Shown here in pieces: positions 2,952 to 64,000 of a DNA stretch of 64,000 nucleotides. The DNA is taken from positions 37,386,001 to 37,450,000 of the forward strand of contig NC_083237.1 in assembly GCF_032191835.1 (NCBI RefSeq), in the 5' to 3' direction. Source of the DNA: Heteronotia binoei (Eukaryota). The notes below the pieces were generated by a model, which was given only the letters and a program-made list of their open reading frames with translations, searched no databases and was not told the origin of the DNA. The position numbers and the translations under genes were made by a program. The first letter of the stretch is position 1. The number at the start of each line of letters is the position of its first letter.

Positions 2952-4326
2952 TCACACACATACACACTGTGGCTAATAGCCACTGATGGACCTCTGCTCC
3001 ATATTTTTATCTAACCCCCTCTTGAAGGTGGCCATGCTTGTGGCCGCCACCACCTCCTGTGGCAGTGAATTCCACATGTTAATCACCCTTTGGGTGAAGA
3101 AGTACTTCCTTTTATCCGTTTTAACCTGTCTGCTCAGCAATTTCATCGAATGCCCACGAGTTCTCGTATTGTGAGAAAGGGAGAAAAGTACTTCTTTCTC
3201 TACTTTCTCCATCCCATGCATTATCTTGTAAACCTCTATCATGTCACCCCTCAGTCGACGTTTCTCCAAGCTAAAGAGCCCTAAGCGTTTCAACCTTTCT
3301 TCATAAGGAAGGTGTTCCAGCCCTTTAATCATTCTAGTTGCCCTTTTCTGAACTTTCTCCAATGCTATAATATCCTTTTTGAGGTGCGGCGACCAGAACT
3401 GCACACAGTACTCCAAATGAGACCGCACCATCGATTTATACAGGGGCATTATGATTCTGGCTGATTTGTTTTCAATTCCCTTCCTAATAATTCCCAGCAT
3501 GGCGTTGGCCTTTTTTATTGCAAACGCACACTGTCTTGACATTTTCAGTTAATTATCTACCACGACCCCAAGATCTCTCTCTTGGTCAGTCTCTGCCAGT
3601 TCACACCCCATCAACTTGTATTTGTAGCTGGGATTCTTGGCCACAATGTGCATTACTTTGCACTTGGCCACATTGAACCACATCTGCTACGTTGATGCCC
3701 ACTCACCCAGCCTCAACAGATCCCTTTGGAGTTCCTCACAATCCTCTCTGGTTCTCACCATCCTGAACAATTTAGTGTCATCCGCAAATTTGGCCACTTC
3801 ACTGCTCACTCCCAACTCTAAATCATTTATGAACAAGTTAAAGAGCATGGGACCCAGTACCGAGCCCTGCGGCACCCCACTGCTTACCGTCCTCCACTGC
3901 GAAGACTGCCCATTTATACTCACTCTCTGCTTCCTATTACTCAGCCAGTTTTTGATCCACAAGAGGACCTGTCCTTTTACTCCATGACTCTCAAGCTTTC
4001 TAAGGAGCCTTTGATGAGGAACTTTATCAAAAGCTTTCTGGAAGTCAAGGTAAACAACATCTATCGGGTCTCCTTTGTCCACAAGTTTGTTTACCCCCTC
4101 AAAGAAATGTAACAGGTTAGTGAGGCAAGATCTTCCCTTACAGAACCCATGCTGAGTCTTCCTCAATAACCTGTGTTCATCAATGTGCCTACTCATTCTG
4201 TCCTTGATAATGGTTTCTACCAACTTTCCTGGTATTGAAGTCAGACTGACTGGCCTGTAATTTCATGGATCTCCTCTGGAACCCTTTTTAAAGATGGGGG
4301 TGACATTTGCTACCTTCCAGTCCTGA
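2952..4326 (-). mobile_element. CR1 LINE, 5'-truncated (RT and C-terminal region), one nonsense codon
   Basis: ORFs 3687-4223 and 2973-3542 with SGVPQGSVLGP, KFADDTKL and the CR1 C-terminus (RSHLEYCVQFWSP, KYFFTQRV). Confidence 0.95.
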
Positions 4327-4712: not shown

Positions 4713-5034
4713 TAACAATAGCAAACATATGCTGCTAATTATCTGTTTACATTGGTTACAAACATTGAAGAAATGCTACAACTTATGAAAAGTCTTCCAT
4801 CAGGTACATAGAACCCTTGGGAGAACTTTCCCAGAAAACAGAGCAGACTTTAATTTAATGACTTTCAAAATCATACAGCTTTTAAGATTCTAGTTTTGAG
4901 AGAAATCAGCATGATACAGTGACGCAAGCTCTACCAGAAGATCTACTTGCATCAATGAATGAAGAGAGAGGTAAGCACTAAAGCAGCTGTAGAAGAAACT
5001 GAATCTGACATTGAAATTTTCAGTGTTATAAGGT

Positions 5035-6082
5035 GATTCCAAAGGCTCCTTAGTAAGCTTGGAGTCAGGGAGTAAAAAGACAGGTCCTCTTGTGGATCAA
5101 AAACTGGCTAATTAATAGGAAGCAGAAAGTGAGTATAAATGGGCAGTCTTCGCAGTGGAGGGCAGTAAGCAGTGGGGTGCCACAGGACACAGTACTGGGT
5201 CCCATGCTCTTTAACTTGTTCATTAATGATATGGAGTTGAGAGTAAGCAGTGAAGTGGCGAAGTTTTCAGATGACACTAAATTGTTCGGGGTGGTGAGAA
5301 CCAGAGAGGATTGTGAGGCACTCCAAAGGGATCTGTCGAGGCTGGGTGAGTGGGCGTCAACGTGGCAGATGAGGTTCAATGTGGCCAAGTGCAAAGTAAT
5401 GCACATTGTGGCCAAGAATCCCAGCTACAAATACAAGTTGATGGGTTGTGAATTGGCAGAGACTGACCAAGAGAGAGATCTTGAGGTCGTGGTGGATAAC
5501 TCACTGAAAATGTCAAGACAGTGTGCGATTGCAATAAAAAAGGTCAACGCCATGCTGGGAATTATTAGGAAGGGAACTGAAAACAAATAAGCCAGTATCA
5601 TAATGCCCCTGTATGAATCGATGGTGCGGTCTCATTTGGAATACTGTGTACAATTCTGGTCACCGCACCTCAAAAAGGATATTATAGCACTGGAAAATGT
5701 CCAGAAAAGGGCAACTAGAATGATTACAGGTTTGGAACACTTTCCCTATGAAGAAAGGTTAAAATGCTTGGGGCTCTTTAGCTTGGAGAAACATCAACTG
5801 CGGGGTGACATGCTAGAGGTTTACAAGATTATGCATGGGATGGAGAAAGTAGAGAAAGAAGTACTTTTCTCCCTTTCTCACAATACAAGAACTCATGGGC
5901 ATTCAATGAAATTGCTGAGCAGTCAGGTTAAAACGGATAAAAGGAAGTACTTCTTCACCCAAAGTGTGATTAACATGTGGAATTCACTGCCACAGGAGGT
6001 GGTGGCGGCTACAAGCATAGCCAGCTTCAAGAGGGGATTGGATAAAAATACGGAGCACAGGTCCATCAGTGGCTATTAGCCA

Positions 6083-6134
<52 letters not shown>

Positions 6135-6236
6135 ATATATATATATATATATATATATAGACCACTATGTGACACAAAGTGTTGGACTGGATGGGCCATT
6201 GGCCTGATCCAACATGGCTTCTCTTATGTTATGTTC
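5035..6236 (+). mobile_element. CR1 LINE, 5'-truncated, with 3' UTR
   Basis: ORFs 5090-5590 and 5603-6079 (RT, nonsense codon between them). 3' end GGCCTGATCCAACATGGCTTCTCTTATGTTATGTT. Confidence 0.95.
6085..6159. repeat. Compound (GT)n(AT)n microsatellite inside the CR1 3' UTR
   Basis: Direct reading. Confidence 0.98.
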
Positions 6237-6949
6237 ATATATTTTGCTTTTCTATTATGACTGTCCTATTGTCCAGAAAAGTTTGCCACATTCTTTAACT
6301 CTAATTAATTTAACTACTGATCCTTCTGCTGTCTCTCGCCCCTGGTGTAGTGCAATCCTATTTAGTGTTTCTACAGTTAAATCCCTTTGAAATTAATGGG
6401 CATAACCTAGATGAGCCCTGCTCTTCTAGTGTCCTTCATAGAGTCTTTTGTATAAAGGAGCATAGATTCATATGAGTCCTGACATATAGTTTCAAGAGGG
6501 TTAAATAACAAAACAACTTCAGCAACAGGTGAGAAAGGGAGGCAATAAAGGAAGATGTAAGAACAAAAACGTGTACAGCTTGCATTCTTGACTCCTTCAT
6601 GTTATTCCACGACTTGTGTGAGCAATATATCTGGGGAGGAGGGGCAAGAATTATTGCAGCATAATGCTAAAGTTATGGCTTCCTGTATTATTTACCCTTT
6701 TACAAGGTTGTCAGAAATGCTTTCATTAAGATAGTGTAACAGTGCAGCAAGAGGAGTAGATGTTGGCTGGCAGTGCCACTTTAAGAAGTTATACTTTTCT
6801 AAACAGATCCTACCAATTGTTTAAAATTGCATTTAATGGTTGAAGGGAGGTAGCTATTATTCCACAGCACCAACAATTCTCACTGAACTAATATAACTGA
6901 ACTAGGAACATCAGAATAATCAGAAACATCAACATACATCTGGTTTTAA

Positions 6950-7080
6950 GTACTGGAAAATGTATGAATGATTTTATTGTATATTTTGTTATAACATTTT
7001 ATGCTATTTTAATTGTTGTTAGCCGCCTTGAGCCTGTCAGGGGAGGGCGGGATATAAATGTGATAAAATAAATAAATAAA
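6950..7080 (+). mobile_element. L2-type LINE 3' tail fragment
   Basis: GTTAGCCGCCTTGAGCC..GGGCGGGATATAAAT..(AAAT)n matches the tail of the L2 at 24915-24990. Confidence 0.65.
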
Positions 7081-7525
7081 TTGCTAGTTAAAAAAAAAAA
7101 AGTGGTGGTCCTCTTTGACTACCCAATGTAGACATTGGAATTGCATGTACAGAAGTCTTGAGAGGTAGTAAGGCATAGAACTGGGTGAGAGTTAACAAAC
7201 AAGCTACTTACGGTAAATTCCACATTTCCTGTGACATAGCCCTTGCCTAAGGGGTCCTGGTTTGTCATATATGAAATGTTTTAGAGATTTATAGCAGACA
7301 GAGCACATATGTGCATTAAGCATTGCCATGTTTGGATCAGAGCATGTAAATCAGGCCAAAATCTGAAGACTGGAAAGGGGTGCTTGGGAGAACTTGATCA
7401 TTTCCATGATCTCTTAGGCCAACTCTGGATGATCTGGGGAACTGGGATTCTCAGAACAAGGTATACCGATTAAGTGATTCTCTGTTTTGACCAACAGGGA
7501 CCATGTGGCAAAATAAAGAAGTCAA

Positions 7526-8474
7526 ATGCCCAACTTAACTTCTTCCTCTGAGTTTTTGCTCTTGGGATTTTCAGACATCCGAGAAGTACAGATCTTAAAC
7601 TTCTTCATGTTCCTAGGACTATATTTGATAGCACTGACTGGTAATTTTCTCATTATTGTGGCTGTTACCCTTGACCATCACCTTCACACTCCCATGTACT
7701 TCTTGTTAGTGAATTTGGCTATTCTGGATCTTGGATTAGTTTCTGTCTTGGTGCCCAAAGCTATGGCCAATTTCCTCATGAACAACAGAACAATTTCTTA
7801 CTTTGGGTGTGCAACTCAAGTTTTCTTTTATCCCCTTTTTGGAGGGACAGATATTGCCTTTCTAACAGTAATGGCCTATGATCGGTATGTTGCTATCTGC
7901 AATCCATTGCAATATGAAGTCATTATGCACAAAGGATCTTGCCTTCGGATGGCAGCCAGTGCATGGATTACTGGTATCCTTTATGCCACTTTACACACCA
8001 GTGGCACTTTTGCCATCACCTTCTGCTCCAATGTTATCAATCAGTTCTTTTGTGAAATACCAGTTACTGAATCTGTCCTGCTCTGACTTATATCTAGTTG
8101 AAACTGGCCTAATTATTTTTAGCTTTGTCATAGTGGTGGGATACTTTATTTTCATTATTTTAACATACGTTGAAATCTTTTCAGCGGTACTCAGAATCCC
8201 TTCAGTGCTGGGTAGGAAAAAGGCCCTCTCCACTTGCCTTCCTCACCTCACTGTGTTCTCTCTGCTTGTTTTCACTGGATTGTTTGCTTATGTAAGGCCT
8301 TCCTCTAACACATCATCTGATCTTGACATTGTTATTGCAGTATCTTATGCTATACTCCCTCCTCTGCTCAATCCATTCATTTATACCATGAGGAACAAAG
8401 AGATCAAAACTGCTTTGTTGAAGCTCTTCAGTGCTGGGCATTTTTCTGTAATTACCAACAAAGCTATTCCATGA
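7526..8474 (+). pseudogene. Olfactory receptor (OR14-like) pseudogene with a single frameshift
   Basis: LHTPMYFLL, MAYDRYVAIC, KALSTCLPHL and PLLNPFIY motifs. The frame changes at CEIP (about 8060), consistent with a 2-bp loss (CCACAG to CCAG). Confidence 0.93.
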
Positions 8475-9559
8475 CAATGGTATTTTGCAATCTACCTCTT
8501 CCAAATGTTTCTCCTCCATGATTTTAAACTGTGGCTTATAAACACTGCCGTATATAAGAAACATTAGGTGCATTCACACTACATTAAATAATGTGTTTTG
8601 CAACTGGATTTTTACTGTGCAAGAATAGCAAAAATCCACTTGCAAAACCCATTATTTAGTGTAATGTGAGCACACCCATTAATTTGCATTTGCCACAGAA
8701 ACTCCTAGCTCAGCTTAATACATTTTATGCGTCTTTAAAAAAAAATGTTCCCCTGTGTTTGGCTATCTAGCTTGTCTCCATTTTTCAGTCCAATTTCCAT
8801 GACAGGATGTAATTAATTGTTGTGAGTATCTGAAATCCATGACCAATTTCATAGGATAGTAACTTTTTAAACAATTATTTAGACTGATCAAAGCACATTC
8901 TTAAAGGAATATTATGCATGCAGACTCAGATTCATTTTTCCTGCAGCCACTGTTGGGAAATTATTCGCATGACTTTGGACCTTCATAGACTTAGAATACT
9001 CCATCAGCATCACCAAAGTAAGTGAGATAACTCTTCAAGGAAGACTTTTTGGCTCAGAGGGGAAACAAATGGTGTGAGGAGGATGACAAGAACCCTTGTC
9101 TGCAAGCAAGCTCCTTTTTCCAATTAGAGAAACCACATGAAGGTGCAAACTGGACTCAACACCCCTTTCTCAGAGCAATCATGGATCTTCATGTCCTTTC
9201 ATCCTCCTGTTGTGCATGGCCCACATATATTGTTATGAAAAAAACTGAATATCTCAACTTACTCATTCAAGTTTCATTTCTGCTGTAGGATAATCAAATC
9301 TATGAGGGTTTTTGTTTTAATTTTGTACCAGTTCCTGTTTTATTAAATTGCACTTCCAATTTAATATTGTACTTATTTTTAAAAAAATTTTATGACAGCT
9401 GTGTATCAGTTATACAGGCTTATATGAATTGCTTCTCAAGCACATAAAACGCTATTAAAGAAAGGCAAGAAAGAACTGAGGGAAACTGAAAGAAATTAGA
9501 TGGGTAATATGTTATTTAAAAATAAGACAGCCAACCTATAGACTTATTCAGAATATCTC

Positions 9560-60100: not shown

Positions 60101-61937
60101 TTTTACAAGCCTTGATGCTTCAAATTTCCTACAATTAACATCTGTTAAGGAAGATCAACTGATCCCTCTGGTAAACAATTGCAATATGGGGGAGGGGGAT
60201 AAACTCCTACTTTTAACACCTTACCTCAGAACAAAAGACATCAATCTTGATGTCAGTTCTCCTACAAAATTTCCTTTCTGTACCAAATTGTCTGCAGATA
60301 TTTTGGCCCCATAAAAGCCCCCAGGTCCCCCAAAGAACCAGCAAATTCTCCTAATTCAATGACATTATTCATTTTACCAACAGGATGAGGAGTAGAGCAG
60401 ATGAGGCCGTTTCAAAAGCAAAGTTGTTTCTGGTGCTCCAACAGGAGCTGCTGCTTGTGGTAAGAATCAATTTTTCAACAGATAATTGATCACAGCAAAA
60501 AAACTCTGGAAATATATATTTTTAAAAAACACAATACAAGAACAGTGGTGGCAAGTCTACAAATAAACATCAATAAAGGGATTACAAATATCTAAAAATA
60601 TGTCCATGCCCAATATGCCATATAGTCAAATGCTGATAAAGTTGTAAGGTCCTCAATCCGTTGAATTACTGAAGGCAGGCATTTATATTTTCAGTGTTTT
60701 AATGTGATTTTTTTTAGCTAAGGTAAGGACATAGGGGTGTTTATTTTTGGTGACCATCAATTAGTCTCCAGGAGACAGGCAAATACTTTTAAAGTACATA
60801 AACATCCTCAAAGACCGATGTTTATTGTAATACAAAATTGATATAAGTAATTACTTCCTCTAAAAAAGACCAATTAACTGGACAGACCCAAAGTTAAAGT
60901 GCCAACAACTGGACACCCTGTCCCTTAGCTAAAAAGGCTCACTGGTGTCCAGCATGTTCTAAACACAATTTTCATTGAATAAAATGCAGCTTAAGACTCA
61001 GAGACAACAGGTGTAAAATTTAGGGCCATATCTCATTGTCTGGCCAAGTAAGACAATCTAGCTGCTTATTACATTCATTTCTGATACTATGCATACCATA
61101 TTAGAAGAATAAGGGAGGTACATCTCCTCATCAAAGCCGCATTCCAAAGTGACAGGTGCCCCGCCCCCACACCCGCCCCACCTCCACACCCACAAATAAA
61201 TGCAAGATATTTCCTATGGGAACTGAGGCAAAATGTCATGATAGGGTCTTGACCTCCTGATCGGTAAATGAATGCCATGTGTTTCCTAATGTAGTGGGAT
61301 TTGTACTTCTTTGGGGGAGGATGAGCTGATCCACTTTAAGAAAAAACTACTTTTGCTACCCCATTCTAATACATTAATTGTAAACATCCAGCATTTTCTT
61401 ATGCCCTTTTCCACATTAAATCCTAACATTTACTAGCATCTTCAGTGCCTGTTCTCAGAGGATTAAAAAAGCACCCTTTTGTTCTTTGCCAGCACACACA
61501 GCAAGATTGCCCAAAGGACTAGTTATTCCAGCATGCAGGTATGGACAATATGAATCAGCTAACAAAGAAAATTTAGATGTGCAGGAAAAGAGCATAGCAA
61601 AAAACTCCTTTTTATGCTTAAGATTTCCTTTGCATCCCTCCTCACACACACACCCCTCATCCACTATTTTGCCTTCCCTTCTGAGAAAAAAGGCTTACTT
61701 CTCCCTCCAGTGTGCAGGCAGTCACAAATGTAAAACACCTAACACCATTTTAAATGTGTCTATTTCCCTCACACTTCAATGCAAAAAATGTCGTTGTACA
61801 CTATATTTGAAATGTTTCAGGCAACTCCTGGTTGTCACAAGGCGTGTCCCATGCGACATTTAAATACACCAATGAGTGCAGGTGGTGCTTTCTCACGGAA
61901 CTCTTTAAAACAGGCGAGACCCCCCCAGCTCCACTCC

Positions 61938-63452
61938 ATGGCCTGTGTTTGTTGCTTTTGGTTTCCTGACTCTGTTGAACCATCATTTTATGAAGAAATG
62001 AATGCTGTGGAGGCCTACGGGGTTCCTGCTTTGGAACAGACTGTTCATGAGAATATGAACCCTGGTGAGGAACCTGTTTATGAGGAGATGATGCATCTTT
62101 CACCCAAAAGCTATGGCGAGGAGTCTGGACATGATGAGGGAAAAGATGAAGCCGAGGATGAGGAAGAAGAGGAATGGGCGCAGTGTGTTCAGAATTGGGT
62201 AGAGGATGTAAGTAGCACAAAGAGAACAGGGATGCTGTTGATAGCGGGGGTGGGGCTGGAAATATTTAGAATTGTGTTTTTCTCTTGCAGATGGAGGATG
62301 AAGGATTGTATTGGAGACTGATTGCTCAAATTATGGAATTGGCGCATAGTAGAGTGGGAGCAAGCTGTTGTAAATTCTGTACAACGATAACACATTGTCA
62401 AGAGAGTAGTTGTGTGAAAAATGTGACACAAGAAGACGGGACAGGATGAGGAAGAAGAAGATGAAGAAGAAAGTATAGTGTGTGTCGAATATTACCTAGA
62501 GATGGTAAGTAGTGGGGGAACATTGGAAAGATCACAACAGTGCGGGGGCAGCATAAACATCGTTTTTTCTCTTGCAGAACGACTATGACGATGTGAGGTG
62601 GGAACAGTTTATACAAATTGTGGAAGTTGCGCATGAGAAAGTGAATCCTTCATGCTGTGATTATTGTGGAGAAATAGCGTGGTATCAAGAACGCAGCTGG
62701 GTGAGAAAGAAAATGGAACGCCCACAACCTCCCTGCGTGCGAGATTTATATCCGGGTGTAAGTCTTTTTATTTAAGGGGTGGGGGGATGCTGATGTCTAG
62801 AAGGGAAATAGAAAGACTTAGCCACTTTTTCCCTGACAAGGTAGGGAAAACTCGAGCATATTCAGAGGTGGCGGATGTCGTCCCTGTGAAGCCAGAACCA
62901 AGTTGCTGCTGGGAATGCATGACCGTATATAACATGCAATCTGTAAAGAAGGATCGTGAGGAAGATTCCCTAGCAGATGCCGAGCACGGTACCGCCGGTG
63001 ATTCCGGACCGGACATGATGGATACCTCTGGAGATTCCGGAGCAGACACGGAGCATGAAGCCATGAAAAAGGTGAGGGAACCCCCGGTTGATGAAGCGCA
63101 AACACCTGAACAGCCAACGGATGCTGATCCAGCCAAGGAGGGGGAAGAAGAAGACACCCGCCCCTGTATTGAGGCTTTATTCCCTGATGTAAGTGTAATA
63201 AAACTGCACCAGCTGTGTGAATGTAACAAAGCGCTATTTGAACTAAAAATGTGTTTTCTTCTTTGAACACAGGTGTGGGACAGGCCCGTTGATTTCGCAC
63301 TACTGGCCAGATGCGTTAGCGAGGAGATAAACCCAGGCTGTTGCTACCGCTGCGGACTGGTCACCCTGTTTCAAAAGGAGGGATACGGTGCCCAAGGCGC
63401 ATCTGTAGATGTTCCAAAGTTTACGGTGTTTGAAGGGGGCAGACCTGTGTAA
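61938..63452 (+). CDS. Putative 5-exon acidic, Cys-repeat protein gene (exons 61938-62207, 62291-62504, 62578-62757, 62841-63188, 63273-63452); exon 2 has a 1-nt frameshift
   Basis: Four GTAAGT..YAG/AAG introns of 83, 73, 83 and 84 nt, all phase 0. Repeated CCxxC module. The start codon is uncertain because the frame is open back to 61779. Confidence 0.72.
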
Positions 63453-63614
63453 ATTTCTGCAAAGGAAAGCGATGGAGCGTGCTGAGAAACAGAAACAACT
63501 TGGAGAAAAAGATGAGAATCAGAACGAGTCAGAGTGAAGATCGCATTTTTTTTTTCTGTATATACGCAGCCTAATAAAAAAAACTTTCATTGTGGCAAAA
63601 GTGAGCAAAGTGTC

Positions 63615-64000
63615 ATGACGCGTCATGGGGATGTGTTAAAAGGGATTTATTATAATCCGCGGGAGGTTGGAAGTTTTGGGGGTATCGAGCCGTTATTTCA
63701 GGCAGCCTCTAAGAAGGGGTATAAGTTGAGCAGAAATGAGGTGAAAGAGTGGTTGACGATCAGGACGCATACAGCTTGCATAAACCGATCAGGGTGCGCT
63801 TCAAAAGGAACAAGGTAATCGTAGGGAATGTCGACGAGCAGTGGCAGGCAGATTTGGTAGATATGCAGCAATATTTGAATTACAATGGGGGCTATAAATA
63901 TATTCTGACAGTGATAGACATCCTGTCTAAATACGCGTGGGTGGTGCCTCTGAAAAACATGGGTGGTACTGAGGTTGCAACTGCTTTTAAAAGCATTTTC
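63615..64000 (+). pseudogene. Maverick integrase (rve/DDE), 1-bp frameshift near 63757, truncated by the window end
   Basis: IYYNPREVGSFGG..EWL, then in the shifted frame DAYSLHKP..QWQADLVDM..YKYILTVIDILSKYAWVVPLK. Confidence 0.92.

Follow-up and report, generated by a model that had tools for sequence, protein, structure and literature searches.

Adenovirus E1A is a left-end, spliced, acidic and Cys-containing protein that carries LxCxE and a CR3-type CxxC-x13-CxxC motif, and polyomavirus middle T is a YxxM adaptor in which splicing joins a Cys-rich region to the Tyr motifs. Bcl-2 homologues occur in adintoviruses, according to the accessible parts of two reports (PMC8502044; 10.1101/2024.03.25.586562). 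Mavericks of nematodes contain intron-bearing cargo between the left terminal inverted repeat (TIR) and the integrase gene, as described in the available text of 10.1101/2022.07.12.499685. In view of this published cargo, the premise of a preliminary description of the DNA studied here, i.e. that Mavericks have no known spliced genes, was too strong; splicing and position have a nematode precedent and are not new in kind for these elements. The accessible part of the vertebrate survey PMC8097293 reports that intact elements showed no introns in their genes, and its supplement gives the Gekko and Paroedura loci, among the rows listed, as fossils.

In the present study, we analysed a 64-kb stretch of Heteronotia binoei DNA (hereafter referred to as the window, to which all positions given without a locus name refer). 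It contains a Maverick-borne gene with four repeated Cys modules, which is compared below with its relatives and with the systems mentioned above.

Host element

The gene is situated between a Maverick's left TIR and its integrase. The left terminus of the element, which marks the TIR start (5'-AGAAGA), lies at 61103..61200 on the + strand, the right limit of this interval being approximate; siblings start with the same hexamer where the shared sequence begins. The gene for an integrase with an rve region (Pfam PF00665, E 4e-13) and a C-terminal chromodomain (PF00385, E 3e-10) starts within 63615..64000 (+ strand) and continues past the window. Beyond the window we detected the integrase, a minor-capsid region and a pPolB fragment, broken up by other repeats, and the right end of this copy was not found within the 30 kb examined. 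A Ginger transposon was ruled out by the pPolB and capsid-module genes downstream of the integrase. Past the minor-capsid region the element decays (L031:5300-7200; L032:693-1412 and 4921-9110; L033:1249-3452), and close to this decayed region we found a frame for an olfactory receptor, a LINE and a Ty3/gypsy element whose pol frame has 1162 aa.

A sibling element (L034/L035) of approximately 17.5 kb, with AGAAGA..TCTTCT ends, TIRs and a 6-bp target site duplication (TSD), has the layout of a vertebrate Maverick, in agreement with that given in the accessible text of PMC8097293. Its pPolB (PF03175, E 6e-36) and integrase pass the Pfam cut-offs, and weak Pfam matches below cut-off were obtained, in the expected order, for the ATPase (E 0.015) and the protease (E 0.0025). 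The ORFs that we take to be the capsid, PW, PZ and PM genes, judging from their position and known N-terminal motifs, had no Pfam match. The right arm of this sibling contains acidic frames that resemble exons and have splice-like ends (L035:6400-6857, minus strand), which may represent a further small spliced gene; imperfect tandem repeats of considerable length occupy L035:4300-6400. At another locus (L003/L004; G000:C3:70480824-70488138), two left ends with the gene are placed face-to-face in a large inverted repeat.

Structure of the gene

The gene is almost certainly real, spliced and Maverick-borne. Four mini-introns are present exactly where the preliminary description had placed them: intron 1 at 62208..62290 (83 nt), intron 2 at 62505..62577 (73 nt), intron 3 at 62758..62840 (83 nt) and intron 4 at 63189..63272 (84 nt), all on the + strand. 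Each starts with GTAAGT, ends with a pyrimidine tract plus AG and is in phase 0. Each donor is located 8 codons past a Cys, with the four proposed Cys+7 peptides in place, and each of the four downstream exons carries the CC-x2-C-x6-Q motif. The whole window contains 17 GTAAGT sequences on its + strand; four occurrences were seen in the 1.5-kb gene versus approximately 0.4 expected by chance, i.e. a roughly tenfold excess. In a sibling element, four were found in the 1.7-kb gene, two in the adjoining 6.8 kb when both strands are counted, and none in 3.5 kb of pPolB.

The five exons (all + strand) divide the modules between them. Exon 1 (61938..62207, 90 codons) includes the ATG, a Cys cluster, two YEEM motifs, an acidic stretch and the first Cys of module 1. 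Exon 2 (62291..62504) contributes the remainder of module 1, an acidic linker and the first Cys of module 2, and exon 3 (62578..62757, 60 codons; 180 nt in 18 of 20 genomic copies) the remainder of module 2 and the first Cys of module 3. The remainder of module 3, a long acidic linker and the first Cys of module 4 are found in exon 4 (62841..63188, 116 codons), and exon 5 (63273..63537) encodes the remainder of module 4 and a C-terminal tail up to the stop of the siblings. This is a spliced Maverick accessory gene: its module comes together only after splicing and has been multiplied as exon units, as had been proposed. A predicted polyadenylation signal, AATAAA, lies downstream of exon 5 (63573..63578, + strand).

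Some details of the first reading had to be revised. The gene had been thought to end at 63452 and to encode approximately 396 aa; because exon 5 has 89 codons in 15 of 20 copies, we place its end at 63537, which gives a product of approximately 435 aa. The frame of the window copy is indeed broken in exon 2, not by a single 1-nt frameshift but by deletions near 62425-62460, and a deletion near 63430 breaks it a second time in exon 5. The resemblance reported for introns 1 and 2 holds over the whole introns (z 5.7-7.3) but largely disappears in the cores: with the splice ends trimmed, z was 0.7, 0.8 and 2.6 in three copies. An introner origin of the introns (a process described in the accessible part of PMC11957031) was ruled out, since the intron cores are unlike one another.

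The start codon at 61938 is presumably the one in use, judging from an ATG that is retained in 20/20 copies. The RefSeq model P0001 (XP_060099311.1) has the same four junctions and a later Met start, downstream of the Cys cluster; this model, which is possibly an annotation of the same genome, was not taken as independent support.

Genomic copies and constraint

In a search of the same genome, 40 of 189 candidates were scored, which yielded at least 55 matches, including 20 full-length copies of 81-100% identity. All eight intron ends are intact in 15 of these 20 copies, and one GT or AG is damaged in the other five. The Cys at donor position -8 is retained in 18, 19, 18 and 17 copies for introns 1 to 4, respectively, and nine copies have an uninterrupted five-exon frame.

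The exons of the 20 copies are less diverged (0.090; 1161/12867 sites) than the intron cores (0.152; 352/2316 sites), which bears out the expectation that exons should be conserved over introns. Length changes in multiples of 3 account for 15 of 26 distinct events in exons, versus 7 of 24 in introns. Stop-creating changes make up 1 of 175 shared and 11 of 283 private changes (p 0.035). Pairwise dN/dS ranged from 0.50 to 0.74 in all 12 within-genome pairs; for shared changes without those of CpG type it was 0.94, with no difference between shared and private changes, and following this control dN/dS was dropped as evidence of selection on amino acids.

Transcription

Approximately 6% of each of four raw RNA runs, which represent at most three samples from two studies, was mapped to the sibling L006 (92% likeness). 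The junction reads anticipated in the preliminary description were obtained for two of the four introns. The junction of intron 2 (L006 2126-2205, GT..AG) is crossed by one X1 contig, two X4 reads and two X6 reads, and that of intron 4 (L006 2819-2905, GT..AG) by three X4 reads, one X5 read and four X6 reads. No junction was listed for introns 1 or 3 in the same runs on L006, where the local depth is approximately 1-3. X1 contigs also cross introns 3 (one contig) and 4 unspliced, which may reflect DNA or unspliced RNA.

Expression is low: 188, 38 and 173 reads were mapped, each from approximately 10 million. The read alleles fit older copies best (13 of 15 sites; the window copy agrees at 7 and L006 at 0); therefore, the reads do not establish expression of the window copy. 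The body of the integrase gene is mostly free of raw reads in X4 and X6, with the exception of one peak. This peak lies in the 5' part of the integrase gene (L006:3541-3782) and has many loose ends at 3706, which suggests a transcribed truncated copy elsewhere.

Related families and exon shuffling

The same genome (G000) contains a second family (family 2) with 64-75% DNA identity to the gene, in which GT(A/G)AGT donors occur at the same four Cys+8 positions, in phase 0. All four intron positions, including those of introns 1 and 3, are present in the copies L060 and L061, and the conservation of intron position that had been expected for a genuine gene was thus observed. Family 2 elements (L059-L062, L064, L066-L072) are older, long-armed, dispersed and four-module, and one of them has a relative of the small CxxC..HxC gene described below. 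No Maverick core gene was found within approximately 10 kb of them.

Modules have been gained, lost and shuffled as symmetric phase-0 exons. Besides exon 1, one subfamily (L030, L048, L053) has a single degenerate module plus module 4, and L051 and its relatives combine different 5' exons with a degenerate module, a further module type and the module-3 exon. In these shuffled subfamilies the donors still lie 8 codons past the Cys wherever the Cys is retained. In other geckos the homologues contain 2-4 modules, and exactly one exon unit is missing from the Gekko model P0008. The module follows the pattern C-x(28-35)-CC-x2-C. Among 29 modules from 12 proteins, 27 retain all four Cys, with the upstream Cys placed 29-36 residues ahead of CC-x2-C; Gln occurs at +7 in 21 and His at -7 in 10. 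This pattern, together with the variation in module copy number, supports amplification as symmetric exons. Degenerate modules are found in a CHCPYC variant subfamily and in the Eublepharis proteins P0002/P0006. In other Eublepharis relatives (P0022, P0034-P0041) the last module is swapped for a repeated, basic, Cys/Tyr-rich tail.

A high-copy non-autonomous Maverick derivative (L055:6645 to L056:5733 through L049; also L050/L057/L058) is approximately 15 kb long, with inverted arms of approximately 5.3 kb. It has AGAAGA termini and a 6-bp TSD, and lacks core genes (L049, L055/L056). Its spliced gene has one exon, encoding a degenerate module and a DSG motif, in common with the four-module gene. 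The derivative also contains a Bcl-2 homologue (L049:3747-4370, minus strand; PF00452, E 9e-22). A small CxxC..HxC gene is present at L049:5518-6000 (minus strand).

Taxonomic distribution

Homologues could be named from five geckos (Heteronotia binoei, Gekko kuhli, Paroedura picta, Eublepharis macularius and Sphaerodactylus townsendi), frequently with many per species. When 1.84 billion representatives were searched with a profile, 19 matches were obtained: 18 family members and a bacterial IPT/TIG repeat protein (P0028, E 3e-8), which was dropped as a relative. No relative outside geckos was named among the 18 family matches, six of which (P0021, P0023, P0025, P0026, P0027, P0029) carry no species name. 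A separate profile search aimed at long fused proteins of 469-2000 aa returned none, which is weak evidence. IMG/VR and the ESM Atlas, searched with P0001, gave no match; in the latter, P0031 gave unnamed clusters at 0.90-0.92, which were set aside. With the gene product, Pfam returned sub-threshold low-complexity matches alone, and a PDB sequence search returned 0 matches.

These data bear on the possibility that a captured host gene is carried as cargo and acts as a host counterpart, like the nematode wasp and krma genes. We consider this highly improbable: the canonical spliceosomal introns, the position shared with nematode cargo and the family 2 elements without nearby core genes would all suit it, but the search of 1.84 billion representatives named geckos alone (again with six matches of unnamed species), the matches in G000 are many dispersed, decaying copies, and all inspected loci (approximately 55) are element-borne or dispersed repeats.

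A prior description of the gene family was not found in the open literature, with Repbase and the supplements of PMC8502044 lying outside the scope of this search, and the accessible parts of PMC9341512, PMC11957031, PMC10812802, PMC6431247 and PMC11753138 contain nothing on the gecko four-module gene. The protein family, the exon-shuffled module and the motif set appear to be undescribed.

Motifs and predicted structure

An N-terminal CxCC cluster (61944..61955, + strand), present in 20/20 copies, is a candidate S-acylation membrane anchor. N-terminal Cys clusters can be S-acylated, and similar ones occur in P0008, P0020, P0030, P0033, P0034 and family 2. No transmembrane helix was predicted, the highest 19-residue hydropathy being ≤1.0 in 7/7 sequences. 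The cluster is followed by two YxxM motifs on the + strand: YEEM motif 1 (61989..62000) and YEEM motif 2, in the context EEPVYEEM (62079..62090). YxxM also fits a YxxPhi sorting signal. The acidic sequence EP(I/V)YEEM occurs once or twice per protein; of nine diverse homologues tested, eight have the Tyr motif. Its Met at +3 is nearly fixed, and two YxxM motifs per gene are found in 18 of 20 genomic copies. YxxM is conserved within a disordered acidic region, and a T-P motif is likewise conserved.

A candidate beta-TrCP phosphodegron, DSGxx(S/T), is located upstream of the last module (63033..63050, + strand). It is present in 6 of 9 diverse homologues, in 11 of 20 genomic copies and also in family 2, as DSGxxS in P0015, P0019, P0020 and P0043, and as DSGxxT in P0001, P0007 and P0016; it usually ends in T and is missing in 3 of the 9. 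In shuffled sequences the Tyr motif arose in ≤0.4% of trials, with a pattern narrower than the counted one, and DSGxx(S/T) in ≤1.7%.

A single-module AlphaFold2 model based on 22 sequences had a mean pLDDT of 71.3 and a pTM of 0.59, with pLDDT 79-89 over residues 21-80; a full-length model (pLDDT 37.5) was discarded. Fold searches with the single module gave no match at E 0.001 in the PDB (best E 2.0) or BFVD (best E 0.83), and the best Z in a comparison with 48,161 chains was 3.8, which is not proof of a new fold. Zn binding by the modules is plausible in view of the retained Cys residues.

Possible function of the product

The reading that we favour, at somewhat short of an even chance, is that the product is a membrane-tethered adaptor that would recruit PI3K-p85 and beta-TrCP through its short motifs. 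S-acylation of the N-terminal Cys cluster would hold the protein at membranes. Host tyrosine kinases would phosphorylate the acidic EP(I/V)YEEM, to which the SH2 domains of PI3K p85 could then bind, switching on Akt survival signalling. DSGxx(S/T) might engage SCF-beta-TrCP, either as a decoy or for turnover of the protein itself or of a bound target. The C-x(28-35)-CC-x2-C module would be a small folded domain, probably metal-binding, that binds a partner or oligomerises, and module copy number might tune avidity. The element would benefit through the survival of the cell where it is active, a function that fits the Bcl-2 homologue in the sister non-autonomous element. There are parallels for the individual steps in the accessible parts of the literature: a viral YxxM binds p85 and requires a membrane anchor (PMC5805360), EPIYA-like motifs are phosphorylated by Src and Abl kinases (PMC13457649), and the DSG motifs of several viruses (Vpu, NSP1, A49 and LMP1) target beta-TrCP (PMC4324316). 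This adaptor reading has to be tempered, as short motifs can be kept for other reasons, DSGxx(S/T) is missing from some relatives, the start of the RefSeq model would leave out the Cys cluster, and we infer every step from motif to activity.

The same DSG motif, found in six of nine homologues and in family 2 and used by Vpu, NSP1, A49 and LMP1 (PMC4324316, accessible part), would also suit a trafficking or degradation adaptor of the Vpu/Nef/NSP1 type, in which the Cys modules would bind a host restriction factor, DSG would bring in beta-TrCP, and YEEM would be a YxxPhi signal and not an SH2 site. Here, the features of the Tyr motif argue the other way: the acidic E-E-P-I/V that precedes the Tyr resembles kinase-substrate EPIYA-like motifs (PMC13457649, accessible part), the Met at +3 is nearly fixed, and the motif is better retained than DSG. 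We regard this alternative as clearly unlikely.

The preliminary description had suggested a positional analogue of E1A, and the position indeed agrees. As a functional proposal, an E1A- or Oncoid-like nuclear regulator would bind Rb-family proteins or coactivators through its Zn modules and acidic regions. This we find quite improbable. Besides the left-end position, splicing, acidity (net charge -60) and Cys motifs, it can draw on an IxCxE-like string in P0001 and P0020; however, LxCxE is absent from P0001 and most homologues, where P0018/P0030 and the P0022 group do match, the position is an unrelated one, and no LxCxE near a CK2 site is conserved among the homologues. Paired CxxC is likewise absent, whereas Oncoids, in the accessible text of PMC8502044, are defined by LxCxE beside paired CxxC and are as a rule located upstream of PolB. 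Neither Pfam nor the PDB sequence search gave a match to E1A. What the gecko protein has instead is the N-terminal Cys cluster, YxxM and DSGxx(S/T).

Finally, the main function could reside in the Cys modules themselves, as metal or Fe-S chelators or as a scaffold for the replication or integration proteins of the element, with the short motifs being secondary. To this we assign a very small probability, since in some subfamilies the modules degenerate while the Tyr and DSG motifs persist and the gene is also carried by elements without core genes, even though the module is the amplified unit and retains its four Cys in 27/29 cases.

The membrane-tethered adaptor may be extended to a broader proposal, which we consider on balance unlikely: that gecko Mavericks have their own middle-T-like oncoprotein family, a lipid-anchored PI3K/beta-TrCP scaffold built on an undescribed metal-binding module multiplied by exon shuffling and paired with a viral Bcl-2 in sister elements. 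These would form a cell-survival kit whose expression continues when the core genes, which have no introns, are silent.

Comparison with known systems

Because vertebrate Mavericks were surveyed by ORF finding and reported to be without introns, spliced genes for host manipulation may lie unnoticed in their accessory arms; the gecko gene is a spliced Maverick accessory case with RNA support. It is also a clear example of exon shuffling within a mobile element, and several gecko genes that are "uncharacterized" in RefSeq are copies of this four-module Maverick gene. If the motif reading is true, an amniote Maverick would, like tumour viruses, target PI3K/Akt and beta-TrCP, with implications for the question of whether Mavericks act as viruses and for the origin of the oncogenes of small DNA tumour viruses.

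The comparisons that follow refer to the accessible parts of the cited sources. Like the vertebrate Mavericks of PMC8097293, the H. binoei elements have the same set and order of core genes, a pair of accessory regions, a length of approximately 17 kb and a 6-bp TSD. In contrast, their termini (AGAAGA..TCTTCT; window 61103, L034:794) fall outside the three end motifs listed there. The gene resembles the nematode Maverick cargo (wasp proteases and krma kinases; 10.1101/2022.07.12.499685) in being spliced, placed between left TIR and integrase, modular, and swapped between elements by recombination. It differs from this cargo in its vertebrate host and unrelated protein, with no enzyme domain and no host paralogue found, and in that its modules are symmetric exons repeated inside one gene.

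With adintovirus Oncoids (PMC8502044) it shares the nature of an accessory gene with short linear motifs beside Cys clusters, and the presence of Bcl-2 in the same element group. Unlike Oncoids, it is located at the integrase end, is spliced and carries YxxM and DSG, with no conserved LxCxE or paired CxxC. The difference from adenovirus E1A is similar: the gecko protein has neither LxCxE nor CxxC-x13-CxxC, consists of a repeated module and shows no homology.

Among viral adaptors, alphavirus nsP3 (PMC5805360) also has an acidic disordered region with YxxM, and an adaptor of this type needs a membrane tether, for which the Cys cluster is the candidate here. No sequence or fold relationship to viral YxxM adaptors was detected, there is no transmembrane helix, and the gecko function is a proposal based on motifs. 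As in the beta-TrCP degron mimics (rotavirus NSP1, HIV Vpu, vaccinia A49 and EBV LMP1; PMC4324316), DSG-x-x-S/T lies in an acidic linker of a Cys-rich protein; in contrast to these mimics, with which it has no homology, the gecko motif often ends in T and is missing in some relatives.
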